64,000 nt of DNA, from IMG/VR virus record IMGVR_UViG_3300045282_000084, positions 15,347 through 79,346 of that record, one strand, 5' to 3'. The translations under genes were made by a program, and so were the position numbers. Shown in pieces: positions 27,877 to 60,040 of this stretch. Position 1 is the first letter of the stretch. Each line of letters begins with the position of its first letter. The notes beneath the pieces are model-generated. The model did no database searches. It was not told the origin of the DNA and saw only the letters and a program-made list of their open reading frames with translations. This DNA comes from a virus.

Positions 27877-28404
27877 ATGGGTAGACCGGCGAAACTCGAC
27901 AAAGAGGCTGCGTTCGAGCTGTACTATAATGAACTCGGCAAGCGTCGCCCATTCAAGGAGATTGCCGAACAGTTTGGAGTTGCGCCCTCGACTGTCGCCA
28001 AGGTTGCTTCTGATCAGGGTTGGTCTCGCAGAGCGTTTGAGCGAGATACTGAGATCCGCTCGGCGGTCGATAGGAAGCTTGTCAAGACCCACGCCCAGCG
28101 CGTTGTCGAGAACTTGAAGCTGCTGGACGCACTCAAGGCCATCTTCGCCAAGCAGCTCATGCCTGGGCAGAACGGTCGCCCCAACCCGAACCAACTTCGG
28201 GAGGTGTCGGTGCGAGAGTTCATCGACATGATCAAGACCGAGATGCTGCTCACGGGCAACCCGACCGAGATTCCAGGAGAGTCCGCGCAGGCACGCACGT
28301 TGCAGGAGATCGAGGAGGAACTGATGGATCTCCCCGACGAGGACTTGGACTACGAGATGCGGGTGCTGCTGGGCGGACGAGGCAATGGCGACAGTCCAGG
28401 CTGA
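27877..28404 (+). CDS. terS: Terminase small subunit
   Basis: N-terminal HTH (FKEIAEQFGVAPSTV..W), immediately upstream of the large subunit. Confidence 0.7.
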   Translation: MGRPAKLDKEAAFELYYNELGKRRPFKEIAEQFGVAPSTVAKVASDQGWSRRAFERDTEIRSAVDRKLVKTHAQRVVENLKLLDALKAIFAKQLMPGQNGRPNPNQLREVSVREFIDMIKTEMLLTGNPTEIPGESAQARTLQEIEEELMDLPDEDLDYEMRVLLGGRGNGDSPG

Positions 28405-29875
28405 CCCGCGCGTCGTCCGCCGTCGCATGGCGCTTGAGCTTGAGCGCCTGCGCTGGATCGCGATGAAGGGACCACCTGCCCACCCAGACTTCGCCTGGGC
28501 GTTCATGCGCTACTACCTGCCCCACTACATGCGGGACAAGGACGGTCGCATCATCCCCCCCGCCCAGTGGCACAAGGAGTTCTGCCAGTTGGTGTTCGGC
28601 ACCATCGGCAGTCAACACGCCGGGTCGTACCTCGCCCCTCGTGGCTACGCCAAGTCCACCATCGTCAGCCTGGTGTTGCCGCTGGCGATGATGTGTCGCA
28701 GGCTCAAGCACTACATCTGGCTGATCGAGGACACGGGCGGTCAGGCCAAGCAGGCGATGCAGTCGATCACGGGCGAGCTGGACTCAAACCACCGCCTGCG
28801 GCGCGACTTCCCACACCTGCGTCCCACCCTCGACCACCGCTCGCGCCCGATCGCAGACCGCGACGACGACATGGTGCTCGGCTACGACAACGACAGCTCC
28901 CTGCGCATCCAGGCGCTTGGTGCTGGACAGAAGCTGCGTGGCCGTCGTCACCGCCAAGATCGTCCAGACCTGATCCTGATCGATGATCTTGAGAACGACG
29001 AGTCGGTGCAGACCAAGTATCAGCGCGACAAGATGGACATGTGGCTGTCCTCAGCGGTCATGGGCGCTCGTGGGCCGGTCACGGACACCTACCTGGTCGG
29101 CACGATGCTGCACTTTGACTGCGTGCTGGCGCGGCTATTGAAGCGCGAGGGTTGGGCGCATGGGCGCTTCGAGGCCATGACCGACCCTGGCGACTTCACC
29201 ACTACCACCTGGCCCGAGTTCTGGCCAGCGGAACGGTTGGAGTCAGCCCGCTCGGCGATGGGTCCGCGGGCTTTCTCGCGCGAGGTGCTGCACCAGGCTG
29301 TGAACGAAGAAGAACAGATGTTCCGGCCGGAATACTTCAAGTGGCGCGCGCCTCCCATTGACCCGCTCCACACGACAATCCGTATCGCGGTCGATCCCGC
29401 CACGACGACCAAAACCTCCTCCGACTACTCCTCCATCGTGTGCGTGGCTCGCACCGAGGACAAGGGCATCGTCACCTATGACGTGCTCGATGTGTGGCGT
29501 GGGCGCGTTCGTGGCGAGGACTTGCAGGGCATGGTGCGCAGGAAGTACGAGCACTGGCGTGGCGCTGAGTACCGGCCGGTGGTCATCTTCGAGGCGACCC
29601 AGGCCCAGGTGTGGGCGGCTGATGCACTCCAGGCGCGCGGCATACCGGTGCGACCGGTGAAGCCGAACAAGGACAAGATCCTGCGCGCCGAGGCCCCCGC
29701 CGTGCTGTACGAGACTGGCCTTGTGTGGCACCACCCCGACTTGAAGCACTCCTTCTTCGAGATCGAAATGGAGCAGTTTCCGTCCTCGGATTACGATGAC
29801 TGCGTAGATGCGGTGGTGTACGCCCTCGGGGACCTGGCATCAGCACGAGTCATGCGCTTGCGCGCTGTCGGCTAG
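28385..29875 (+). CDS. terL: Terminase large subunit
   Basis: Walker A PRGYAKST, Walker B LILIDDLEND, nuclease AVDPA and DDCVDA. Confidence 0.93.
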   Translation: MATVQADPRVVRRRMALELERLRWIAMKGPPAHPDFAWAFMRYYLPHYMRDKDGRIIPPAQWHKEFCQLVFGTIGSQHAGSYLAPRGYAKSTIVSLVLPLAMMCRRLKHYIWLIEDTGGQAKQAMQSITGELDSNHRLRRDFPHLRPTLDHRSRPIADRDDDMVLGYDNDSSLRIQALGAGQKLRGRRHRQDRPDLILIDDLENDESVQTKYQRDKMDMWLSSAVMGARGPVTDTYLVGTMLHFDCVLARLLKREGWAHGRFEAMTDPGDFTTTTWPEFWPAERLESARSAMGPRAFSREVLHQAVNEEEQMFRPEYFKWRAPPIDPLHTTIRIAVDPATTTKTSSDYSSIVCVARTEDKGIVTYDVLDVWRGRVRGEDLQGMVRRKYEHWRGAEYRPVVIFEATQAQVWAADALQARGIPVRPVKPNKDKILRAEAPAVLYETGLVWHHPDLKHSFFEIEMEQFPSSDYDDCVDAVVYALGDLASARVMRLRAVG

Positions 29876-30552
29876 TGGTGGACGACGATCAGGGCGATGA
29901 TGGCCACGATCACTGACAGCGTGGACAGCACGGCCGTGATGTTGGCGCGAGTGGCGGCGGCGGCAGCCACGGTTGCAGCGGTGTTGTCGGTCTCCTGAGT
30001 CCTACTACCCGAGTCACGACCTTCCCCGCTGTCGAGCCGGGATTTGAGATCAGCGATCTGGGCGCTGAGGCCGTTGGAGATCGTGGTCGTCAGATCCTGG
30101 AGCTTGGAGATGGTCTCCGCAGTCGCGCGCTCTGACTTGTCGATCGCTTTGGCATTGGACTCGTCCTGTTTTGCTGCGGCCTCTTTCTGCGCTGCGAATG
30201 CTGCATCTACTGCGACTTTGTTATCCCGCGCCTCGCGCTCCTGGCGCGTGTCGCGCTCTGCAAACTGCGTGGCGATCGACTGGAACTTCACGTCCATCAG
30301 ATTGTCGATGCTGGTGAAGCGTTCCGCCATCAAGCCGGTGATGTGGGCGACCTCCGTCTGCACGACGGTAGGCACCCGGTTCACGGTGTCGCTGAGGAGC
30401 GCGGTGGCCTTGTCCATCGCAGCCAGCCGCTCCTCGATCACGTCCCTGATGCCATCCACGTAGTCGCGCTCTGCGCGCACCGTGCGCAGTAGTTGCTCCG
30501 TTGTGAGGATGGTCGGATCTGGAACCGGGGGAGTCCCATCGTTCGTAGCCAT
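29872..30552 (-). CDS. Coiled-coil protein with C-terminal transmembrane helix
   Basis: PDPTILTTEQL start, long helical body, hydrophobic end; possibly leaderless (ACATCC-N11-TAGCCT-6 nt-ATG). Confidence 0.7.
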   Translation of the reverse strand: MATNDGTPPVPDPTILTTEQLLRTVRAERDYVDGIRDVIEERLAAMDKATALLSDTVNRVPTVVQTEVAHITGLMAERFTSIDNLMDVKFQSIATQFAERDTRQEREARDNKVAVDAAFAAQKEAAAKQDESNAKAIDKSERATAETISKLQDLTTTISNGLSAQIADLKSRLDSGEGRDSGSRTQETDNTAATVAAAAATRANITAVLSTLSVIVAIIALIVVHH

Positions 30553-30605
30553 AGTTGCAGGCTATCGGCACGATCGGATGTATGCTTACTCCCTCCGTGG
30601 CAGGG

Positions 30606-30648
30606 AGAAATGGAGGGGGGCCGACCCCACCGGGCCGACCCCCCTTCC
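30606..30648 (-). terminator. Intrinsic terminator-like hairpin after the AAA gene
   Basis: GGGGGGTCGGCCC-GGTG-GGGTCGGCCCCCC followed by TCCATTTCT. Confidence 0.6.
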
Positions 30649-30667
30649 CACCCTGACGAGTGGGCTT

Positions 30668-32203
30668 TTACTCCTCGCCATCCTCCTCGGGATGGTTGAG
30701 GAGATCCTCGCGGATGTTCCCGCGCACGGCCTCGACCACATGCCGGTCGATGACCATCCCGAGCGTGTCGGGCTGTCGGGTCTCCAGAGCGTCGTTCATC
30801 AGCTTGAGCTGGTAGTCCAAGCCGTGGGCGGCGCTTACGAAGTCGTCCGTCGTCAGGGTGATGGCGTCGGCGTCGCCGTCAACGCGCGGCAGGGCGTACC
30901 TGACCGTGCGGTCGATGGCCTCCTTGGCGAAGGCCGGGTGGAAGTCCTTCATCGCCTCAAACACGACAGCGTAGTCGATGTCCTCGTCCAACATCTCGGC
31001 CTGGATCAAGGACTTGACGAGGTCCTCGATGCCGGTTGCGTCGAGCTTGCCGAAGGGGATGACGGAATCCAGACGACCTGCACGCAGCATCCCCTTGTGG
31101 ATGCGATCCACGTGGTTGGTCGTCAGCACCACCATGATCTCGGTGCCCTTCGACGGAATCCCGTCGAAGATTTCGAGCATCCGGGTGGTTGCGTCAGCCG
31201 TCTGGTCTGCCGAGGCCACGGTGTCCATGTCCTCGTAAAAGACCACGCACGGCTGGTACAGGCGGGCGGTCTGCATGACCTGAACGAGATCGTCCTCGCC
31301 GGGCCGTGCCATGATGAACGTCCACCCGTGATTCGTCGCGACCTGGCCGGTGAGGTAGGCCGCGAGCGTCTTGCCCGTGCCGTAGTCACCTGCGAGCAGC
31401 GTTGCCCGCTTGAGCGGCAACCGCAGATCACGATGTTCCTCCGCGAACCGCAGCGGAGAGAACAGGTTCGCGTCGAGCTGCCGCCAGATGTCCTGGTGGT
31501 AGATGACGCGAGCCGGGTCAACTCCCGACAGGTCGATGTAGCCGGGGGTTGCGCCACCGTCGATGGCCTTGCCCCGGTAGATCGATTCCGTCGCGAGCTT
31601 CTCGGCGATCATCTTGAAGATCCCCTGCATCTGGTGCTGGTACTTGCGGGGGCCACTAGCTGTCACCGCGAACACGATGCCGTACTTGGGGTCGCGAGCC
31701 TCACCGAGACTCAACTCGACACCCGGCAGGAACGGCACCGTGAAGTTCCCCCACGGAACCTGTTCCTCCTTTTTCGGGCCAACCGCGATGGTGCGAACCT
31801 CGGGCTTGACTTTCATCGGCCCGAAGAACGTCTGCACCGTGCGGCTGTCGTGGCCGACCGCGCCGAACGCCTCCTTGAGCGCCCGCCACGTGCACCACGC
31901 ACCGTCCATCGGTCGATAGGGGAACGTCTTGGAGAACTGTGTCTGCTCCTCCATCCGCTCCACCGCATCGACAATCGCTCGCGCCGCCTGCATATAGGCC
32001 ATGCCCTCGGGGATGATGAGCTGATCACCTTCGTGCTTGATCTGCTCATCCGCGAACGACGAGCCGCCCAACTCACCGAGGAGATCGAGGATGCGCTCCT
32101 CGTTCTCCAAGCGGGCGATCTCCGAGGGGTCAAGCTCTCCGCTTGCATCCCCCCGTGAAACACGGCGAGCCAGTTCGCCGCCTTTGGCCTTGGATGTGGC
32201 CAC
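30668..32203 (-). CDS. AAA+ ATPase (classic clade)
   Basis: Walker A GDYGTGKT, Walker B VVFYEDMD, SRH TTNHVDRI..MLRAGRLD; AGGAG SD before the GTG at 32203. Confidence 0.9.
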   Translation of the reverse strand: MATSKAKGGELARRVSRGDASGELDPSEIARLENEERILDLLGELGGSSFADEQIKHEGDQLIIPEGMAYMQAARAIVDAVERMEEQTQFSKTFPYRPMDGAWCTWRALKEAFGAVGHDSRTVQTFFGPMKVKPEVRTIAVGPKKEEQVPWGNFTVPFLPGVELSLGEARDPKYGIVFAVTASGPRKYQHQMQGIFKMIAEKLATESIYRGKAIDGGATPGYIDLSGVDPARVIYHQDIWRQLDANLFSPLRFAEEHRDLRLPLKRATLLAGDYGTGKTLAAYLTGQVATNHGWTFIMARPGEDDLVQVMQTARLYQPCVVFYEDMDTVASADQTADATTRMLEIFDGIPSKGTEIMVVLTTNHVDRIHKGMLRAGRLDSVIPFGKLDATGIEDLVKSLIQAEMLDEDIDYAVVFEAMKDFHPAFAKEAIDRTVRYALPRVDGDADAITLTTDDFVSAAHGLDYQLKLMNDALETRQPDTLGMVIDRHVVEAVRGNIREDLLNHPEEDGEE

Positions 32204-32343
32204 TACCACGCTCCTCTCATTGCGCCGCACAACGCGGCATGGTCGAGCGACATGACGCCGCTCGTTCGCCCATCGGGGGCGAACTTCGACGGGGTGCTAC
32301 TGGCTTGCCACCCCTGCGATTGACTACAGTTACTCACACGGGT

Positions 32344-32496: not shown

Positions 32497-32982
32497 ATGA
32501 GTGATTCTGGGCACGCACAGTTGCATCGGGTACTTGTAACCGGTGACCGAGAGTGGAGTGACCCACACCCCATTTACGAGGCGCTCGATGAGCTGCGGCG
32601 CAAGTACGGGCCGCTGCTGATCATCCAGGGTGATGCCAGGGGAGTGGACACCCACGCAAAGCATTGGGCGATCAGCCGACGCGAAGCGTATGCGTCGTTC
32701 CCCGCCCAGTGGGATCGGCTCCACAAGGCTGCTGGGCCGATCCGCAACTCGCAGATGCTGACCGAGATGCGACCGTCGCTCTGTGTCGCGTTCCACCCGA
32801 ATCTGGACGAATCGAGGGGAACGGCAGACATGGTAAAGAAGGCTCGGAAGGTGTGCGAGGTTCTTGTCAATCCACACGTCAGGGAGGACGATGGAGACAG
32901 AGCCCCAGGAACAGGGTTACTTCATGAACGAGGAAGACGGCGCGACGAAGTACGAACTTCCCCGTCTGAAACAGCAACTTGA
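32497..32982 (+). CDS. SLOG-family (DUF2493/YspA-like) protein
   Basis: RVLVTGDREW..IIQGDARGVD..AAGPIRN..SRGTADM. Confidence 0.85.
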   Translation: MSDSGHAQLHRVLVTGDREWSDPHPIYEALDELRRKYGPLLIIQGDARGVDTHAKHWAISRREAYASFPAQWDRLHKAAGPIRNSQMLTEMRPSLCVAFHPNLDESRGTADMVKKARKVCEVLVNPHVREDDGDRAPGTGLLHERGRRRDEVRTSPSETAT

Positions 32983-33145
32983 CCAAGTTCGCGGGACGGT
33001 CGCCGATCTTTGTCAAGAATGGGATGGAACGAAAATCGAACCAGAAGTATGGCCGGTTGTTCTAGCTCTATTCGATGCAGTCAAGAAGGTCGAAGATGAA
33101 ATGACGCGGCTTGGAATCACGCTGCGCTCGGCAGGACTCGGCTGA
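32891..33145 (+). CDS. Hypothetical protein
   Basis: GGAGG SD. Confidence 0.55.
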   Translation: METEPQEQGYFMNEEDGATKYELPRLKQQLDQVRGTVADLCQEWDGTKIEPEVWPVVLALFDAVKKVEDEMTRLGITLRSAGLG

Positions 33146-33190
33146 CAGTTGTCTGACACCGCTATCTAAGCGTTGTAGTAAACTGCATGA

Positions 33191-33402
33191 ATCGCACAGT
33201 CAACGTGCGAACAGGGGGACAGGGAATCGGTTGGACTGGGTGAAAGCCCCTTTCGGAGTTCGACCGATGGGGGGGCGAGGTGTTGGTTGACTGGCCAAGC
33301 GCGGTTCGACCGCGCAGCACCTCGTCCCCCACCTCCATCGGCTGGGGTCGCGACGGGACCCTCCTCCTTCGAGTGGAGTAGCCCAACCCGTTGCGGCCCC
33401 GG
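33191..33402 (+). ncRNA. Candidate structured ncRNA with three long G-U-containing helices
   Basis: Own promoter CTATCT-N11-TAAACT (33162-33184); 12-, 15- and 17-bp stems; no convincing ORF. Confidence 0.6.
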
Positions 33403-33429
33403 CCGGTGACCCTGGGATCTTCTAGATCA

Positions 33430-33494
33430 CATCTATGTGGTAAACCTGCTAAATCCCATCTATGTGGTAAAATGGGGTCAACCATTTACCGCAT
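33430..33494 (+). promoter_or_regulatory. Extended -10 promoter with repeated operator-like ATGYGGTAAA boxes
   Basis: CATCTATGTGGTAAA twice (33430, 33457), inverted TTTACCGCAT at 33485; TGTG-G-TAAAAT. Confidence 0.6.
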
Positions 33495-33508
33495 GGAGGG
33501 GGTTCTGA

Positions 33509-34438
33509 ATGTCTACGTCCGTCGGGCCGGAGAGTGCGACCGAAAACGTCGGTATGTCCCACTACAACTGGCTGTCTGAGGAGATCGAGCGCGAGTTTCG
33601 CCGCCCCTTCACGGTCGAAGCGGTGCGGTTCAAGCCGCAGTCGGTCAGCAAGGACAAGACCCGAGCCCTAGCGACGTTCTACATCGACGCGCGCCTGGCT
33701 GCCGAACGCCTGAACGCCGCCGCTGGAGCCGCCAACTGGGCCGACGAGTATCGGGTGCTGTTCGAGTCATCACCCACCGCTCACTCCGACAACTTCTTCC
33801 CCGTCGAGTGCCGCTTGACCGTCTATCAGGTGACCAAGACCGACGTGGGTATCTACCAGAAGGCGACCGCCGACGACAAGGCGGTCAAGTCTGCCTACTC
33901 TGACGCCTTCAAGCGGGCGGCGGTCAAGTTCGGCATCGGTGCCTACCTGTACGCGATCCCCGGCATCTGGGCTCCGGTTGAGGTGGGGGAGAACGGCAAG
34001 GTCAAGGGCTTCACCAAGGCGGGCATCGCCCAGCTCAAGCGCGATTACCTGACCAAGCTCAAGGCGATCGAGGGCCGGTTCGGTACCGCCCTTGACCACG
34101 GCGATGTGGGCGATGACCCCGAGGTAGGAGATCAGACCGAGTACGCGCCGCCACGGGTGGCCACGATCCCCTACTCGCAGCAGAAGACCGTGTGGGCGAG
34201 AGCCAGAGACGTGGGCCTAGTCATGATCGACAAGCCGACCGACGTGGACAAGGACAAGCTGGAGACGATCGTGGAGATGGTCACCGGCCACCGCAAGGTG
34301 TCTGAGATCGCGGTCACGGACTTCAACCACGTGCTCAAGGTGCTCGACGCCTACAAGGAGCGGCCTGCTGACGCCGAGGCCAAGATCCTCGACTTCATCC
34401 GAACGAAAGAGAATACTGCGGCTGAAACCGCCTTGTAG
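33509..34438 (+). CDS. Rad52/Sak-family single-strand annealing recombinase
   Basis: YIDAR..ERLN..W..KSAYSDAFKRAAVKFGIGAYLY. Confidence 0.9.
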   Translation: MSTSVGPESATENVGMSHYNWLSEEIEREFRRPFTVEAVRFKPQSVSKDKTRALATFYIDARLAAERLNAAAGAANWADEYRVLFESSPTAHSDNFFPVECRLTVYQVTKTDVGIYQKATADDKAVKSAYSDAFKRAAVKFGIGAYLYAIPGIWAPVEVGENGKVKGFTKAGIAQLKRDYLTKLKAIEGRFGTALDHGDVGDDPEVGDQTEYAPPRVATIPYSQQKTVWARARDVGLVMIDKPTDVDKDKLETIVEMVTGHRKVSEIAVTDFNHVLKVLDAYKERPADAEAKILDFIRTKENTAAETAL

Positions 34439-35127: not shown

Positions 35128-35164
35128 ACCCCTCCCTTACCCAGCCGGGGTATGCGATCCGTAC

Positions 35165-35500
35165 TACCAGTCACGCCGCTTCGCGGACTCCTTGAAGGCA
35201 AAGTTCGGCTTATGCGTGGGAGAGTCAACCATAGAGCTGAACATGTCCGAGCCTGCCGCTGACTTCTGCCTATCGCCGTGTTAGGGCGTCCGCCTGCCCG
35301 CACTCACATGCGGTGCTCGGCCCCGGTGCCACCGGGAGAGGACGACTCTGGATGCTGTCACAGGTGAACATGCTGCATTGTCGATGGTAGTCGCCGAACT
35401 GATAGAATGCAATCGGACGACTCTCCGGCCTCGCCAGTTGGAGAACATGCTGCGATAGAGGCTCGGCCAGGCTGCACTTCCTGACCGGGCCTCTGTCTCT
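35165..35500 (+). ncRNA. Candidate large structured ncRNA with internally repeated modules
   Basis: Many stems with G-U pairs on the plus strand; GGACGACTCT x2, GAACATG x3; no plus-strand ORF in the track. Confidence 0.5.
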
Positions 35501-35513
35501 TAGGTTGACCCGG

Positions 35514-35542
35514 TTGACCTTCTCGGTGTGAGCCTGTAGTAT
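35514..35542 (+). promoter_or_regulatory. Canonical SigA-type promoter for the replication genes
   Basis: TTGACC-17 nt-TAGTAT. Confidence 0.7.
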
Positions 35543-35626
35543 TGGGCGGTACACCGTTTCGCGGCCCCCTGGCTCCTCAACCCCCTCCTGTCGGGGGGCC
35601 GCGAACTTGATCCGAGGGGGGTCAGA

Positions 35627-36076
35627 GTGTCAGAGCAAGTCGTTCCCCAGGAGACCATGCTGCAACGAGTGCCGTGGTCGGGGGAGATCATCGACGTGAG
35701 CGACCCTGCCGTCGTGGCCACCGCCCTGTACGAGTTGCGGGAGATGAGGCGGCGCATGGCTGAGTTTGAGGAAGCCGCGCAGCAGATGCTGCTCGACCAG
35801 ATGGACACGCGCGGCCAGTGGACGATGCGGTTCGGGGACAGAGAGGTCGAGGGTTCGACTCCGGGCGACGACTACTACTACGACGTGGAGCAGTTCCGCA
35901 AGGTGTTGGAGGCGGGGCTGCCCGAGGACAGGTTCAACGAGATCGTGACCGTAAAAGTCACGGAGTCCGTGAATCGAACCAAGGCAAAGGCGCTCCTCAA
36001 GGTGCCTCAGTACGAGCAAATCGTCAAAGACGCTCGCGTCGATACCGCCAAGCGGCGACGGGTGATCGTCCGATGA
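35627..36076 (+). CDS. Hypothetical protein, possibly Gp157/Gam-like
   Basis: Coiled-coil N-half, basic C-terminus; position in the recombination/replication module. Confidence 0.5.
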   Translation: MSEQVVPQETMLQRVPWSGEIIDVSDPAVVATALYELREMRRRMAEFEEAAQQMLLDQMDTRGQWTMRFGDREVEGSTPGDDYYYDVEQFRKVLEAGLPEDRFNEIVTVKVTESVNRTKAKALLKVPQYEQIVKDARVDTAKRRRVIVR

Positions 36077-39229: not shown

Positions 39230-39275
39230 TGGTACACTTCGCGCACAGTCAGGTAAACCACCGAAAGGGGCAAGC

Positions 39276-53550: not shown

Positions 53551-53880
53551 GGATCGTCAGCGCCACCACCCGTCGTCAGTTCCGGCTGGAGCCGCACCAT
53601 AACGGCTGCCACGTGTACGAACTTGAGGACGGGCGGTGGCGCAAGACGATGGTGTGGCCAAGCGACGGAGAGGCTTACGCCCACGTCTACCACACGATCA
53701 AGCACGCAGAGATTCGGGCACTCAAGTTCGGTGAGAACGAAGCTGAACCAGAACCTGAAACAAAGCCCAAGCGTAAGAGACGATCACCGGTCAAACGGAA
53801 TCGTTAGTCTCATCTTGAGCCTACCGTACACTATGTGTACGCGCGGTCAATACCGACCGCGTAGGGCAGAGGAGGGTCAT

Positions 53881-55851: not shown

Positions 55852-55910
55852 CATCCTCTGAGCGATGGGGTACACTGTGCGCAGGTCAAGTCAACCACGA
55901 AAGGGGTCTC

Positions 55911-57331: not shown

Positions 57332-57393
57332 ACCGCCCTCTCGCACATGCGGTAACCTATGGGTAGGTCAGTCAACCACCCAAAGGGGGCGTC

Positions 57394-60040
57394 GTGCCTG
57401 AGATCGAAACCCTGTGCGAAGCATGTGGCTACCCGTGTGACGGGCAGTTCTGCTTGCGCGAAAAGTGCGTGGCCGATCGATTCGGAATCAAGCCGCCGAA
57501 GCCGAAGCCGCGTCGAAAGCGCGTCAAGAAGCTACCCAAGCCCATCGCGCCTGCGAAGTTCAAGCGCAGGCAACGGGTTGACCATCAGCCGCCCATCGGT
57601 ACCCGAGAGGGGTTGAACGACCACCACAACGAGAGCTACCAGCGCATCACCATTCACCGCTACCTCGAACGCGACAAGATCGAGGCGCTGATCAAGCTTG
57701 GGGAGGAACTGGAGAAGTAGCAGCATGGTCATCATCAGGATCGAGACCGAACCAGCCGAGTTCCCACTCGGCCCGTTCTACAACCTGTGGATCGAGGGTG
57801 ACCTCGCTCACCACGGCGACTCAATCCATCCCATCCTCGACAAGATCGTGGACATGCGGAGGATGGGCCGCATCGTGGTGTTCGACTCATGTCCGACGTA
57901 GAACTCCAGCCGCTCCCGCTCACCAAAAGGTACATCTACGTCGCCTCATGGTGGGACGGGGACGAGTTCACCTGGCCGATCGGCTACTTTCGTCTTCCTC
58001 CCACGCGCAGGGATCAGTTACGCGCGCTGCGCGACTTTCTGCTCGAATCGGAATACGGCGACGGCGAGGGGCTATCTGCCCACTTTCGGGATTACCCTCC
58101 CAGAAGGGACGTGCTTGAAAATGTCAAGATCGAGCGACACATGCTCCGATAGGAGGGTCACGATGCGGTACGCTCGCATTCAGAGCACAGACGCTATCGT
58201 CATTTCGCGCTACCTGCCCACAAACTACTCCGTGCTGTTCTCCGATGAGCGAACGACGGTGATTGCAGGCGAGGATGTCTACGGGTGGGCGCTCGATGAC
58301 TTCGTGCTTCCACGTCTGAGCACGTGGAACCTCATCGGCGGTGAGATCGATCTGCTGGGAGAGTGCAAGCTGTGCGGGGAGGCGGTGTTCACCGACGATG
58401 ACCCCGGCGAGATGCACGACCCGAACAGCGACAAGCGCGGCACCTGTCACGGGCAGTGCGGCCTCGACGCGGGCTGGGTGGTGTCGTGAGCGCAGAAGAC
58501 GACCCCAACCGTCAGCTTGGACCGTTCGTGGAGGGGCTCATTATGGGGGCCATCCTGGCGGACTGGCCGCGACTCGACACGAACACCAGGGCGATCGGCT
58601 GGAAGATGGAGATGGTGGAACTAGACCGTCACGCGCTGGTGTTTACCAGCCCAACCAAAATCAAGTGGCGCATCGTGGCGCAGATCATCGAGGACGACTC
58701 GACGCCCTCTCAGGGGTCAGGTACAATCGACACATGAGTCAACCACCCACCGAAAGGGTCTAGACATGGATACCCAGGCGCGTGTTCTTGTGATAGCGCT
58801 CGTGCTCACCAGTTTCGTCGCGGGCCTTCTTCTCGGCCACTTTGGTTTGCCATCATGACTTACGACGACATGATGGACCTCAAGCGCAACGAGGAGTCAG
58901 AGGGTGAGGCAGGCCCACGCCCGCTCGCGTTCACGGCGGACGAGGTAGCCCAGCACATCCACGAGAACCCGGACGATCCCGACTGCGAGGTGCTGAACCT
59001 CGCGATGGAGCGCGACGTGGCCGCCCGTGAGCGATATTGGCAGCAGCGTGCGCTGGACGCAGAGGAGAGGCTACGCGAATACGAACGTGGCTATCGCCAT
59101 GCTTTCTGAGTCTGTGTTCCTAGGAGTTTTGGCGGTCATCGTTCTGATCCTCGTCGCCCTGGCCATTCGCCCGCTGCTCGAACTGCGAAGGCTCGACAAG
59201 CTCGACCGCGAGACGTGGGCCAAGATTCACGACCTGAACAGGAGGAAGCGGTGACTAGGCCGTTCGGGATTCCCATGCAGGATGTCCCACCAGGCTGGCA
59301 TGCAATACCCACTGAGTACGGCATGGCCGTATTCACCCGTCAGCAGTACGAGCGAGCCGAAATCCCCAACGGGACGCGCGTGCGCAAGATCAACACTAAG
59401 CCAGGCGACGTGTACGTGGATGGCTGGGAGGGAGTGGTGATCGGGAGTGCTGGTCATGAGTCTCTTGACCCAGAGGTCGGCTACTTCGTCATCTGGGACG
59501 GCAGTGAGATTCCCATTGGCACGATCGGCTCGAAGCTGGAGATGGTGTGATGAGCGACGCTCTTTACGAGGCGCTCGCAGAGTTGGAAACCGCCGCGACC
59601 GAGTTGGTGAAGACAGCCAAGCCAGTGTCAGGCACAGACGCATGGGTCGTGTCGAAGCAAGCAATGGATCGGCTTCGCGTGGCATTGATCGAGTTGACCC
59701 AGGAGTATGAGCGCGAGTAGTCGCCCTCTGAGCGGTGCGATACCATACTTGCATGAGTTCAGTCAACCGAAAGGGCACTATGCCACGTGAGACGGAAATC
59801 GGCTCGTCTGAGACGAGCCACAAGGTGGGTGATCGCGTCACGCTCGCCCTCCGACACGAGAGCTGGCCGTATGTGAAGGCATATACGGGCACGATCGTGT
59901 CGTTCGGAAGCGATGTGCGCGAGGCGCGCCCCGACGACGAGGGTGGGACGGTCGCCGTCGCACAAGTCAAGATCGACGGCGGTTACAACAACTTGGATTG
60001 GATCACGGTGCCCATCGATCACCTGCCTGATCCGGTATGA
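57394..60040 (+). other. Array of small hypothetical ORFs (57394-57720, 57725-57901, 57889-58152, 58163-58489, 58486-58737, 58855-59109, 59099-59254, 59251-59550, 59780-60040)
   Basis: Coupled starts and stops; three CCCTCT promoters (57336, 58705, 59724). Confidence 0.55.

Follow-up and report, generated by a model that had tools for sequence, protein, structure and literature searches.

A strongly folded, non-coding phage locus carrying a split antisense copy of a repeated gene leader: a candidate trans-acting anti-leader RNA

The 64-kb stretch of DNA analysed here (hereafter the window) covers positions 15347-79346 of a linear phage contig of 79 kb from IMG/VR, with an estimated completeness of 78%. 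About 11 small-gene cassettes in this window share a near-identical leader of ~24 nt, GGTCAGTCAACCA-CCGAAAGGGGC. We found that the reverse complement of this leader is present, divided over two blocks, in a strongly folded element that lies in a 363-nt gap (33146-33508) between an open reading frame (ORF) of 93 amino acids (aa) and the gene for a Rad52/Erf-type annealase. This split antisense copy is the most informative feature of the element, and it had been missed in an earlier sequence-only reading of the same DNA, in which the element was taken for a structured RNA with a tRNA-elbow-like domain. The explanation that we favour, with a probability of roughly one half, is that the element specifies a stable RNA of ~220 nt that acts in trans as a bipartite anti-leader, similar to the c4 RNA of phages P1 and P7, and that blocks the translation of the ~11 small-gene cassettes.

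A two-block antisense copy of the cassette leader

The cassettes belong to a promoter and leader class, CCCTCT-N11-TAnnnT, that is statistically real. The pattern CCTCT-N11-TAnnnT was encountered at 12 sites in the window where 0.84 are expected, and GTCAACC occurred 27 times against an expectation of 9.5. Each of the sites heads a small gene of unknown function, and the cassettes are laid out as CCCTCT-N11-TAcacT, a spacer of ~7-13 nt, (GG)TCAGTCAACCA-CCGAAAGGGG, 5-8 nt and the start codon. Alignment of the 11 leaders yielded the consensus ...GGTCAGTCAACCACCGAAAGGGG..., the second half of which, CCGAAAGGGGC, is a Shine-Dalgarno (SD) site located 5-8 nt before the start codon. The promoter class is characterized by an unusual spacing of 11 nt and by the lack of a -35 element, and no sigma-70 gene was detected in the 79-kb contig, which is 78% complete. 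The sites of the class, within 32344-61760, and the related site that precedes the element are as follows.

39217, 42424, 45612, 47099, 50575, 55855, 56763, 57337, 58706, 59725 and 61712, plus strand: class sites, CCCTCT-N11-TAnnnT
32365, minus strand: class site, CCCTCT-N11-TAnnnT
33162-33184, plus strand: promoter-like site CTATCT-N11-TAAACT, a variant of the class with the same spacing

The last of these had already been proposed as the promoter of the element, and its relationship to a class with 12 sites strengthens that proposal. CAGTCAAC follows it after 13 nt, as is the case at bona fide class sites, and a transcript start near 33190-33192 is therefore plausible.

Leader pieces were searched on both strands of the window. 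The reverse complement of the putative RNA contains GGCCAGTCAACCA, 27 nt, CCGAAAGGGGC, which is the leader consensus in two parts. The corresponding blocks are colinear, they stand in the order appropriate for antiparallel pairing at a distance of 27-28 nt, and the single difference (T to C) preserves a G-U pair. No second place holding both blocks was found elsewhere in the window. The domains mentioned here and below are those of the predicted fold.

33246-33256, plus strand: block A, GCCCCTTTCGG (RNA GCCCCUUUCGG), exact reverse complement of the SD half CCGAAAGGGGC
33285-33296, plus strand: block B, GGTTGACTGGCC (RNA GGUUGACUGGCC), the whole first arm of domain 2

Block A covers the 3' strand of a mini-hairpin and an open internal loop in domain 1, and its CUUUCGG segment has an unpaired probability of 0.64-0.97. 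The sequence CCGAAAGGG is present in 7 copies in the window, compared to 0.42 expected. The plus strand has six of these, of which five belong to cassette leaders, and the sole minus-strand copy in the 64 kb is the one inside the RNA, which also contains the complement of AGTCAACC. Exact matches of 9-11 nt to block A were found at the ribosome-binding sites (RBSs) at 39261, 42465, 50619, 55152, 55898, 58750, 59767 and 61754. Block B can pair over 12 bp (one G-U) with the leader 5' half GGTCAGTCAACC, and TGGTTGACTG (33284-33293) is the exact complement of CAGTCAACCA. The GACU loop of this block has an unpaired probability of 0.99 and its stem is weak, two of the four pairs being G-U. Exact matches of 9-11 nt to block B are located in the leaders at 55889, 57369, 58737, 59760 and 61744. 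Block A is perfect with respect to the leader at 39261 and block B with respect to those at 57369 and 61744; the two blocks fit the consensus of each leader half rather than any one extant leader.

The complementarity was evaluated by counting, for exact 9-mers, the leaders that are hit per block. The two blocks matched 7 and 5 of the 11 leaders, respectively. A second block reaching 5 leaders was obtained in 1 of 20,000 dinucleotide shuffles, and none of the 6,070 natural windows taken from both strands had a second block reaching at least 3 leaders. This test replaced an earlier statistic (any 9-mer against any part of a leader) that was too permissive, as it gave a match in 26% of the shuffles. 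Combining duplex energies with the opening energies of both partners placed blocks B and A as the top two sites in 8 of the 11 leaders; with the remaining leaders (45614, 47101 and 56765), the single best site was one of the blocks. The best-site energy averaged -9.3 kcal/mol for the real leaders versus -4.0 kcal/mol (standard deviation 2.8) for shuffled ones. Among 142 plus-strand windows the RNA ranked first (-9.26 versus a mean of -5.61, standard deviation 1.03, with the best control at -8.15), even though no stretch of the genome is less open.

Further complementarities to RBSs provide weaker evidence, since they involve generic anti-SD sequences that are partly paired. One of these concerns the linker between domains 2 and 3.

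33329-33338, plus strand: anti-SD-like linker CCACCTCCAT (RNA CCACCUCCAU) between domains 2 and 3

This linker matches the RBS of the Rad52 gene, ATGGAGGGGG (33493-33502), at 9 of 10 positions as an inverted repeat, and it is mostly paired within a closing helix (P0) in the minimum free energy (MFE) fold. In the apical part of domain 3, GACCCUCCUC is an exact 10-mer match to the RBS at 53869 and a 9-mer match to that at 58151. Lastly, CCTCC is found 3 times in the RNA, where ~0.2 are expected.

Fold and coding status of the putative RNA

The MFE fold of positions 33185-33410 has an energy of -131.8 kcal/mol (z -7.22), and none of 200 shuffles folded as well. All the elements described in the sequence-only reading were found in place, and all of the stems it named recur in this fold. 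In a 200-nt sliding scan of the 64 kb, 3 of the 4 best plus-strand windows overlapped the stretch, which is the most structured plus-strand segment in the window. The domains fold locally, in the order of their transcription, and each of them is significant alone.

33192-33210, plus strand: 5' terminal hairpin TCGCAC-AGTCAAC-GTGCGA (-7.5 kcal/mol, z -2.6)
33214-33218, plus strand: SD-like G run GGGGG, pairing with CCTCC at 33332-33336 (pair probabilities 0.41-0.58)
33226-33268, plus strand: domain 1 (-20 kcal/mol, z -3.2)
33270-33330, plus strand: domain 2 (-45.5 kcal/mol, z -6.7)
33337-33407, plus strand: domain 3, a 21-bp hairpin (33337-57/33387-407; -50.2 kcal/mol, z -5.7)

The loop of the 5' hairpin displays the sense leader motif, as previously noted, with an unpaired probability of 0.9-1.0, and it is itself complementary to block B (CAGTCAAC versus GTTGACTG). 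P0 (5 bp, GGGGG/CCUCC) encloses domains 1 and 2. Domain 1 consists of a 12-bp helix, ATCGGTTGGACT (33226-37) with AGTTCGACCGAT (33257-68), around a GGGT-GAAA-GCCC mini-hairpin (33238-49) and a one-sided internal loop of 7 nt, CTTTCGG. Domain 2 is built on a 15-bp helix, GGGGGGCGAGGTGTT (33270-84) with AGCACCTCGTCCCCC (33316-30), which carries the arms GGTT-GACT-GGCC (33285-96) and GCGCGG-TTCGA-CCGCGC (33299-315) and is followed by ACC (33331-33). The stem of domain 3, initially described as 17 bp long, extends to 21 bp, and its 29-nt apical part holds GACCCTCCTCC (33357-33367). Domain 3 is not followed by a U-tract and received no terminator call; its role is probably that of a 3' stabiliser or of a U-less terminator. 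An exact direct repeat of 9 nt, GTTCGACCG, was observed at 33258-33266 in the 3' strand of domain 1 and at 33304-33312 in the UUCGA arm. Its complement, GGTCGAAC, resembles a degenerate leader 5' half, and no leader variant in the window has this sequence.

The stretch is non-coding. Under the phage's own codon model the minus-strand ORF of 107 aa scored -22.8, the plus-strand ORFs of 59 and 40 aa scored -15.5 and -9.6, and a mini-ORF of 19 aa scored -2.6, compared to +104 for the Rad52 gene. The translation of the 107-aa ORF is rich in Arg and Pro and unlike a real protein. With all scores negative, the coding interpretations of these four ORFs were dropped.

Of the 80 pairs in the fold, 12 are G-U, and the complementary strand folds worse (-104.2 kcal/mol, z -2.47). 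That all non-Watson-Crick pairs in the stems are G-U had been taken to indicate selection at the level of a plus-strand RNA. The figures agree with this view in direction; as folding in this phage is generally better for plus-strand than for minus-strand windows, the asymmetry is partly compositional. The same observations bear on the idea that the stretch works as DNA, heading the replication/recombination module as a single-strand initiation signal or as origin-associated hairpins next to 27-bp repeats. Indeed, the use of DNA parameters likewise gives good folds (-65 kcal/mol and z -5.3 for the plus strand, -56.1 kcal/mol and z -3.5 for the minus strand), and the stretch is adjoined by three ATCTATGTGGTAAA-like sites with a spacing of 27 bp in an AT-richer patch. 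Nevertheless, we regard a DNA-level role as very improbable: the 12 G-U pairs favour RNA, a promoter and a transcribed-leader motif precede the stretch, and the antisense match to mRNA leaders would be left unexplained.

We also examined the earlier proposals that the RNA is a tRNA mimic serving as a decoy, or a Y-RNA-like molecule. ARAGORN detected no tRNA or tmRNA genes in the 64 kb. In Rfam there were no matches at the gathering thresholds, in line with the earlier inference of a novel RNA; at E<=10 the search returned microRNA-hairpin noise (7-22 bits, compared to gathering thresholds of 40-168), with none of the tRNA, tmRNA, Y-RNA and C4 families among the matches even at this level. A Ro60/Rsr TROVE gene (PF05731) was not detected in the 79-kb contig, 78% complete, in a search in which the controls were detected. 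A canonical T arm has a 5-bp stem and a 7-nt UUCRANN loop with a G53-C61 closure, and it docks on the GG of the D-loop. The presumed T arm of the element (33299-33315) has a stem of 6-7 bp and a loop of 3-5 nt, in which UUCGA leaves no two bases over, while the neighbouring arm of domain 2 has the loop GACT, without GG. The ACC that follows domain 2 in the DNA (33331-33333) would be continued by domain 3 in the putative RNA. A tRNA mimic with an elbow thus fails with respect to the tRNA finder, Rfam, the geometry of the T arm, the D-loop GG and the Ro gene, and the reading is not supported.

More generally, domain 2 might be directed at a protein or an enzyme, whether as a tRNA-like decoy, an RNase P substrate, a Y-RNA-like molecule or a sponge. 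Its long helix followed by ACC and the presence of UUCGA, the T-loop pentamer, in one of its arms are compatible with such a role. In addition, RNase P cuts out the c4 RNA (PMC5320573), so that processing at the base of domain 2 is conceivable. Against this stand the empty ARAGORN and Rfam results, a short loop on a long stem that offers no G53-C61-type closure with two bulged bases, and the absence of a GG partner loop, an anticodon arm and a Ro/TROVE gene from the features found. We consider a protein- or enzyme-directed RNA improbable. A natural external guide sequence, which would aim RNase P at the leaders, was dropped as a candidate on the finding that neither block is followed by RCCA.

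Locus, homologues and a possible role in cis

The phage appears to be without a close relative, as judged from its proteins. The contig has a G+C content of ~61%, its TerL is <=30% identical to that of any deposited phage, and close relatives of Rad52, TerL and the AAA ATPase were not found in scans of IMG/VR peptides. Searches for homologues of the element were likewise negative. A blastn comparison with phage records revealed none, and exact-pattern scans of IMG/VR and GTDB genomes produced none either, with one chance match in each of two scans. When 61 Rad52 loci from IMG/VR and 80 from metagenomes were searched with a covariance model of the RNA, no credible match emerged; the best hits scored 17 bits and represented generic hairpins. 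In the three relatives closest to this Rad52 (52-60% identity), the gene is not preceded by a non-coding gap. Lastly, three separate soil metagenome studies carry the same phage sequence at low depth, and one of these may be where the contig itself was assembled. The datasets concerned are DNA runs; no RNA run was among those listed as containing the phage, which speaks neither for nor against transcription. Over the compared region (32900-33800) the soil contigs show no differences wherever they overlap, and these letter-identical copies therefore provide no variation to use.

The gene directly downstream of the element, on the same strand, is the following.

33509-34438, plus strand: Rad52/Erf-type annealase gene (PF04098, phrog_1097)

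This position raises the question whether the element is a cis-acting 5' leader of ~320 nt that controls read-through into the Rad52/recombination operon, or the translation of Rad52, by its structure. No canonical terminator separates the two, the linker described above is complementary to the Rad52 RBS, and a hairpin at ~33452-33505 sequesters this RBS with GGTCAA in its loop. However, an extended -10 (TGGTAAAAT) followed by GGGGTCAACC is located between the RNA and Rad52, which suggests that Rad52 has a promoter of its own. Furthermore, the Rad52 relatives mentioned above lie tight against the upstream gene without a leader, and the split antisense leader copy would remain unexplained. We therefore consider a cis-acting leader fairly unlikely. 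A specific version of this idea, an antiterminator or attenuator based on alternative pairing of CCGATGG (33264-70) with CCATCGG (33335-41), was not supported. The two segments are indeed present, but this helix, the sole alternative that was named, costs +17.4 kcal/mol and has an equilibrium probability of about zero. Together with the lack of a U-tract or terminator call at domain 3 and the local folding in co-transcriptional order, this makes an attenuator a weak proposition, and the Rad52 relatives lack such a leader altogether.

Several other features of the locus were recorded. Two direct repeats of 26 nt that are 88% similar, at 33419-44 and 33446-71, lie between the RNA and Rad52, together with an incomplete copy in inverted orientation (33485-98); the three copies are spaced by exactly 27 bp in an AT-richer patch. 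The second repeat contains the extended -10 TGGTAAAAT, and together with the inverted copy it forms a long RNA hairpin (z -4.1) that hides the Rad52 SD GGAGGGGG and has GGUCAA in its loop. The repeats in 33419-33505 might serve as an operator array, as iterons or as a translational lock. A second non-coding gap, 35128-35626, is 499 nt long and moderately structured (z -3.4). It contains a sense AGTCAACCA at 35223 and two GGTTGACC units at 35503-35520, which overlap a sigma-70-like promoter call, TTGACC-17-TAGTAT. In the same gap, a 16-bp hairpin at ~35553-35600 has a C-rich loop, CCUCAACCCCCUCC, and precedes the RBS of the gene at 35627.

Upstream of the element, 119 nt are shared by an ORF with a YAcAr/SLOG domain (32497-32982, PF10686) and the plus-strand ORF that follows it (32864-33145; 93 aa), whose coding score is weak (8.7); one of the two ORFs probably has a miscalled start. 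The gene for the large terminase subunit (28385-29875) is located after the structural and lysis genes and adjoins a divergent minus-strand pair (region 28385-32230) for a coiled-coil protein and an AAA ATPase (phrog_10440). Neither an integrase nor a resolvase gene was found in the contig. For this reason the phage may be lytic, bearing in mind that the record is only 78% complete.

A possible clamp on the leaders, its relatives and its implications

How a trans-acting anti-leader could work is suggested by the placement of the blocks, which lie at the tips of two helices, of 12 bp in domain 1 and 15 bp in domain 2. The strands between them descend the 12-bp helix, pass through one G and ascend the 15-bp helix, so that the blocks are at the far ends of helices that share a junction. 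According to our model, an RNA of ~220 nt would be made from its own phage-type promoter, its ends being protected by the 5' hairpin and the 21-bp 3' hairpin. Block A would pair with the SD half and block B with the 5' half of the same leader. With only one nucleotide linking the bases of the helices, both guide segments might clamp a single leader over the stretch that runs from its 5' end up to and including the ribosome-binding site, and one leader could bridge the two helix tips. Binding of the 30S subunit to clamped leaders would then be hindered across the whole gene class. We put forward this 'double-guide clamp', in which the tips of two side-by-side helices of about one turn each seize the whole leader from its first nucleotide to the SD, as a tentative and rather doubtful elaboration of the anti-leader proposal.

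A number of observations argue against an anti-leader RNA. Its transcription from this locus rests on inference, and no U-tract terminator is present at the RNA 3' end. No homologue emerged from any of the searches, which leaves no covariation test and no test of co-evolution between leader and anti-leader. The complementarity had been noticed before it was tested, and the test is therefore post hoc. The energy-based rank corresponds to a z of only about -3.5. Owing to the high stability of the RNA, pairing would require that 4 nt in block A and 8 nt in block B be melted out of stems. The net energies calculated with RNAcofold (-4 to -8 kcal/mol) were no better than those for shuffled leaders, although it should be noted that this program cannot represent pseudoknot-like pairing inside the loops of intact domain 1 and 2 helices. 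Furthermore, the RNA and its predicted targets share one promoter class, and the logic of such a timing is unclear.

Another point against a regulatory RNA is that the sequence shared with the 61714 leader extends by another 5 nt (CGCGC), into DNA that is possibly untranscribed. This fits descent from an inverted copy of a leader, which may be no more than a scar. Such a copy is indeed a likely ancestor of the element, judging from the facts that its reverse complement is closest to the 61714 leader and that the likeness extends through CGCGC; such an origin would suit both a scar and a regulator that evolved from a scar. In the former case, illegitimate recombination among the at least 15 repeated cassettes would have left an inverted, interrupted leader copy that has no function and whose structure is incidental. 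The resemblance of the reverse complement to the 61714 leader over CGCGC..GG(T/C)CAGTCAACCA and CCGAAAGGG(T/G)C, the internal 9-nt repeat GTTCGACCG and the uniqueness of the element to this phage are all in line with this possibility. Yet the three main helices, with z-scores of -3.2, -6.7 and -5.7 in the most structured stretch of the 64 kb, do not consist of leader sequence. Both antisense blocks are still perfect, each at an exposed helix tip, they fit the consensus rather than one donor leader, and an intact promoter and a sense leader precede the element. In view of these unrelated helices, exposed blocks, consensus fit and intact promoter, we judge a pure scar to be quite unlikely.

The closest known counterpart of the proposed anti-leader is the c4 RNA of phages P1 and P7, which is released by RNase P, and in which loop b' covers a ribosome-binding site and loop a' binds the upstream leader (PMC5320573). 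Like c4 (Rfam C4 family, RF01695, to which P4 CI also belongs), the element would be a phage-encoded structured RNA with two antisense segments, block A lying over the SD and block B over the 5' leader. In contrast, c4 has 77 nt and three small hairpins, whereas the present RNA would have ~220 nt and three large domains, without a match in Rfam. Moreover, c4 has one downstream operon as its target, compared to the ~11 dispersed cassettes predicted here, and the present contig offers no context of immunity or lysogeny, as neither integrase nor resolvase genes were found in it. We treat the likeness to c4 as a working resemblance and not as homology.

With respect to the leaders, the nearest parallel is provided by the SAS/ESAS motifs of cluster K mycobacteriophages, in which an SD-including motif is found a few nt before the starts of many non-structural genes, almost exclusively in one orientation (PMC3203893). 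Each genome has a single copy in the reverse orientation, and that work did not decide between a phage RNA and a protein as the possible binding partner of the motif (PMC3203893). The leader of the present phage behaves alike, with its single inverted copy inside the RNA. The motifs differ in sequence (GGGATAGGAGCCC versus GGTCAGTCAACCACCGAAAGGGG here), and the present one is tied to its own promoter and located at the 5' end of the mRNA.

Among bacterial small RNAs, RsaE/RoxS of Firmicutes and the 6C RNA of Actinobacteria use C/U-rich unpaired segments to pair with the SDs of several mRNAs. C/U-rich unpaired segments would face SD regions here as well. None of these RNAs was among the Rfam matches listed, and the present RNA would differ from them by its second block, which is not directed at an SD, and by acting on the phage's own regulon. 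T4 RegA is a protein that binds the ribosome-binding regions of many early mRNAs with a loose sequence specificity and stops their translation. It would be a functional analogue, the effector proposed here being an RNA that acts through Watson-Crick pairing. The likeness to tRNA and YrlA, which lies in a long helix followed by ACC and an arm with a UUCGA loop, failed in every test that was run.

Many phages place a conserved tag before a whole class of genes, and we know of no case in which the reader of such a tag has been identified. In the present phage, the tag occurs in the same genome as its exact mirror image, which is split into two parts and lies within a strongly folded putative RNA that is preceded by the same kind of promoter. 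This provides a concrete and testable partner for leader tags of this type. If the clamp exists, one RNA would set the translation of about a dozen accessory genes, and it would represent the missing partner of the 'start-associated' leader motifs of phages, for which the binding factor has been open since 2011 (PMC3203893). The proposed layout, with guides at the tips of helices, is unlike that of c4 and that of ordinary small RNAs with a seed in a loop, and as a natural design it may prove interesting for multi-site RNA targeting. Our findings suggest that a phage may control a regulon cheaply with one RNA, base-pairing taking the place of the RegA protein of T4.

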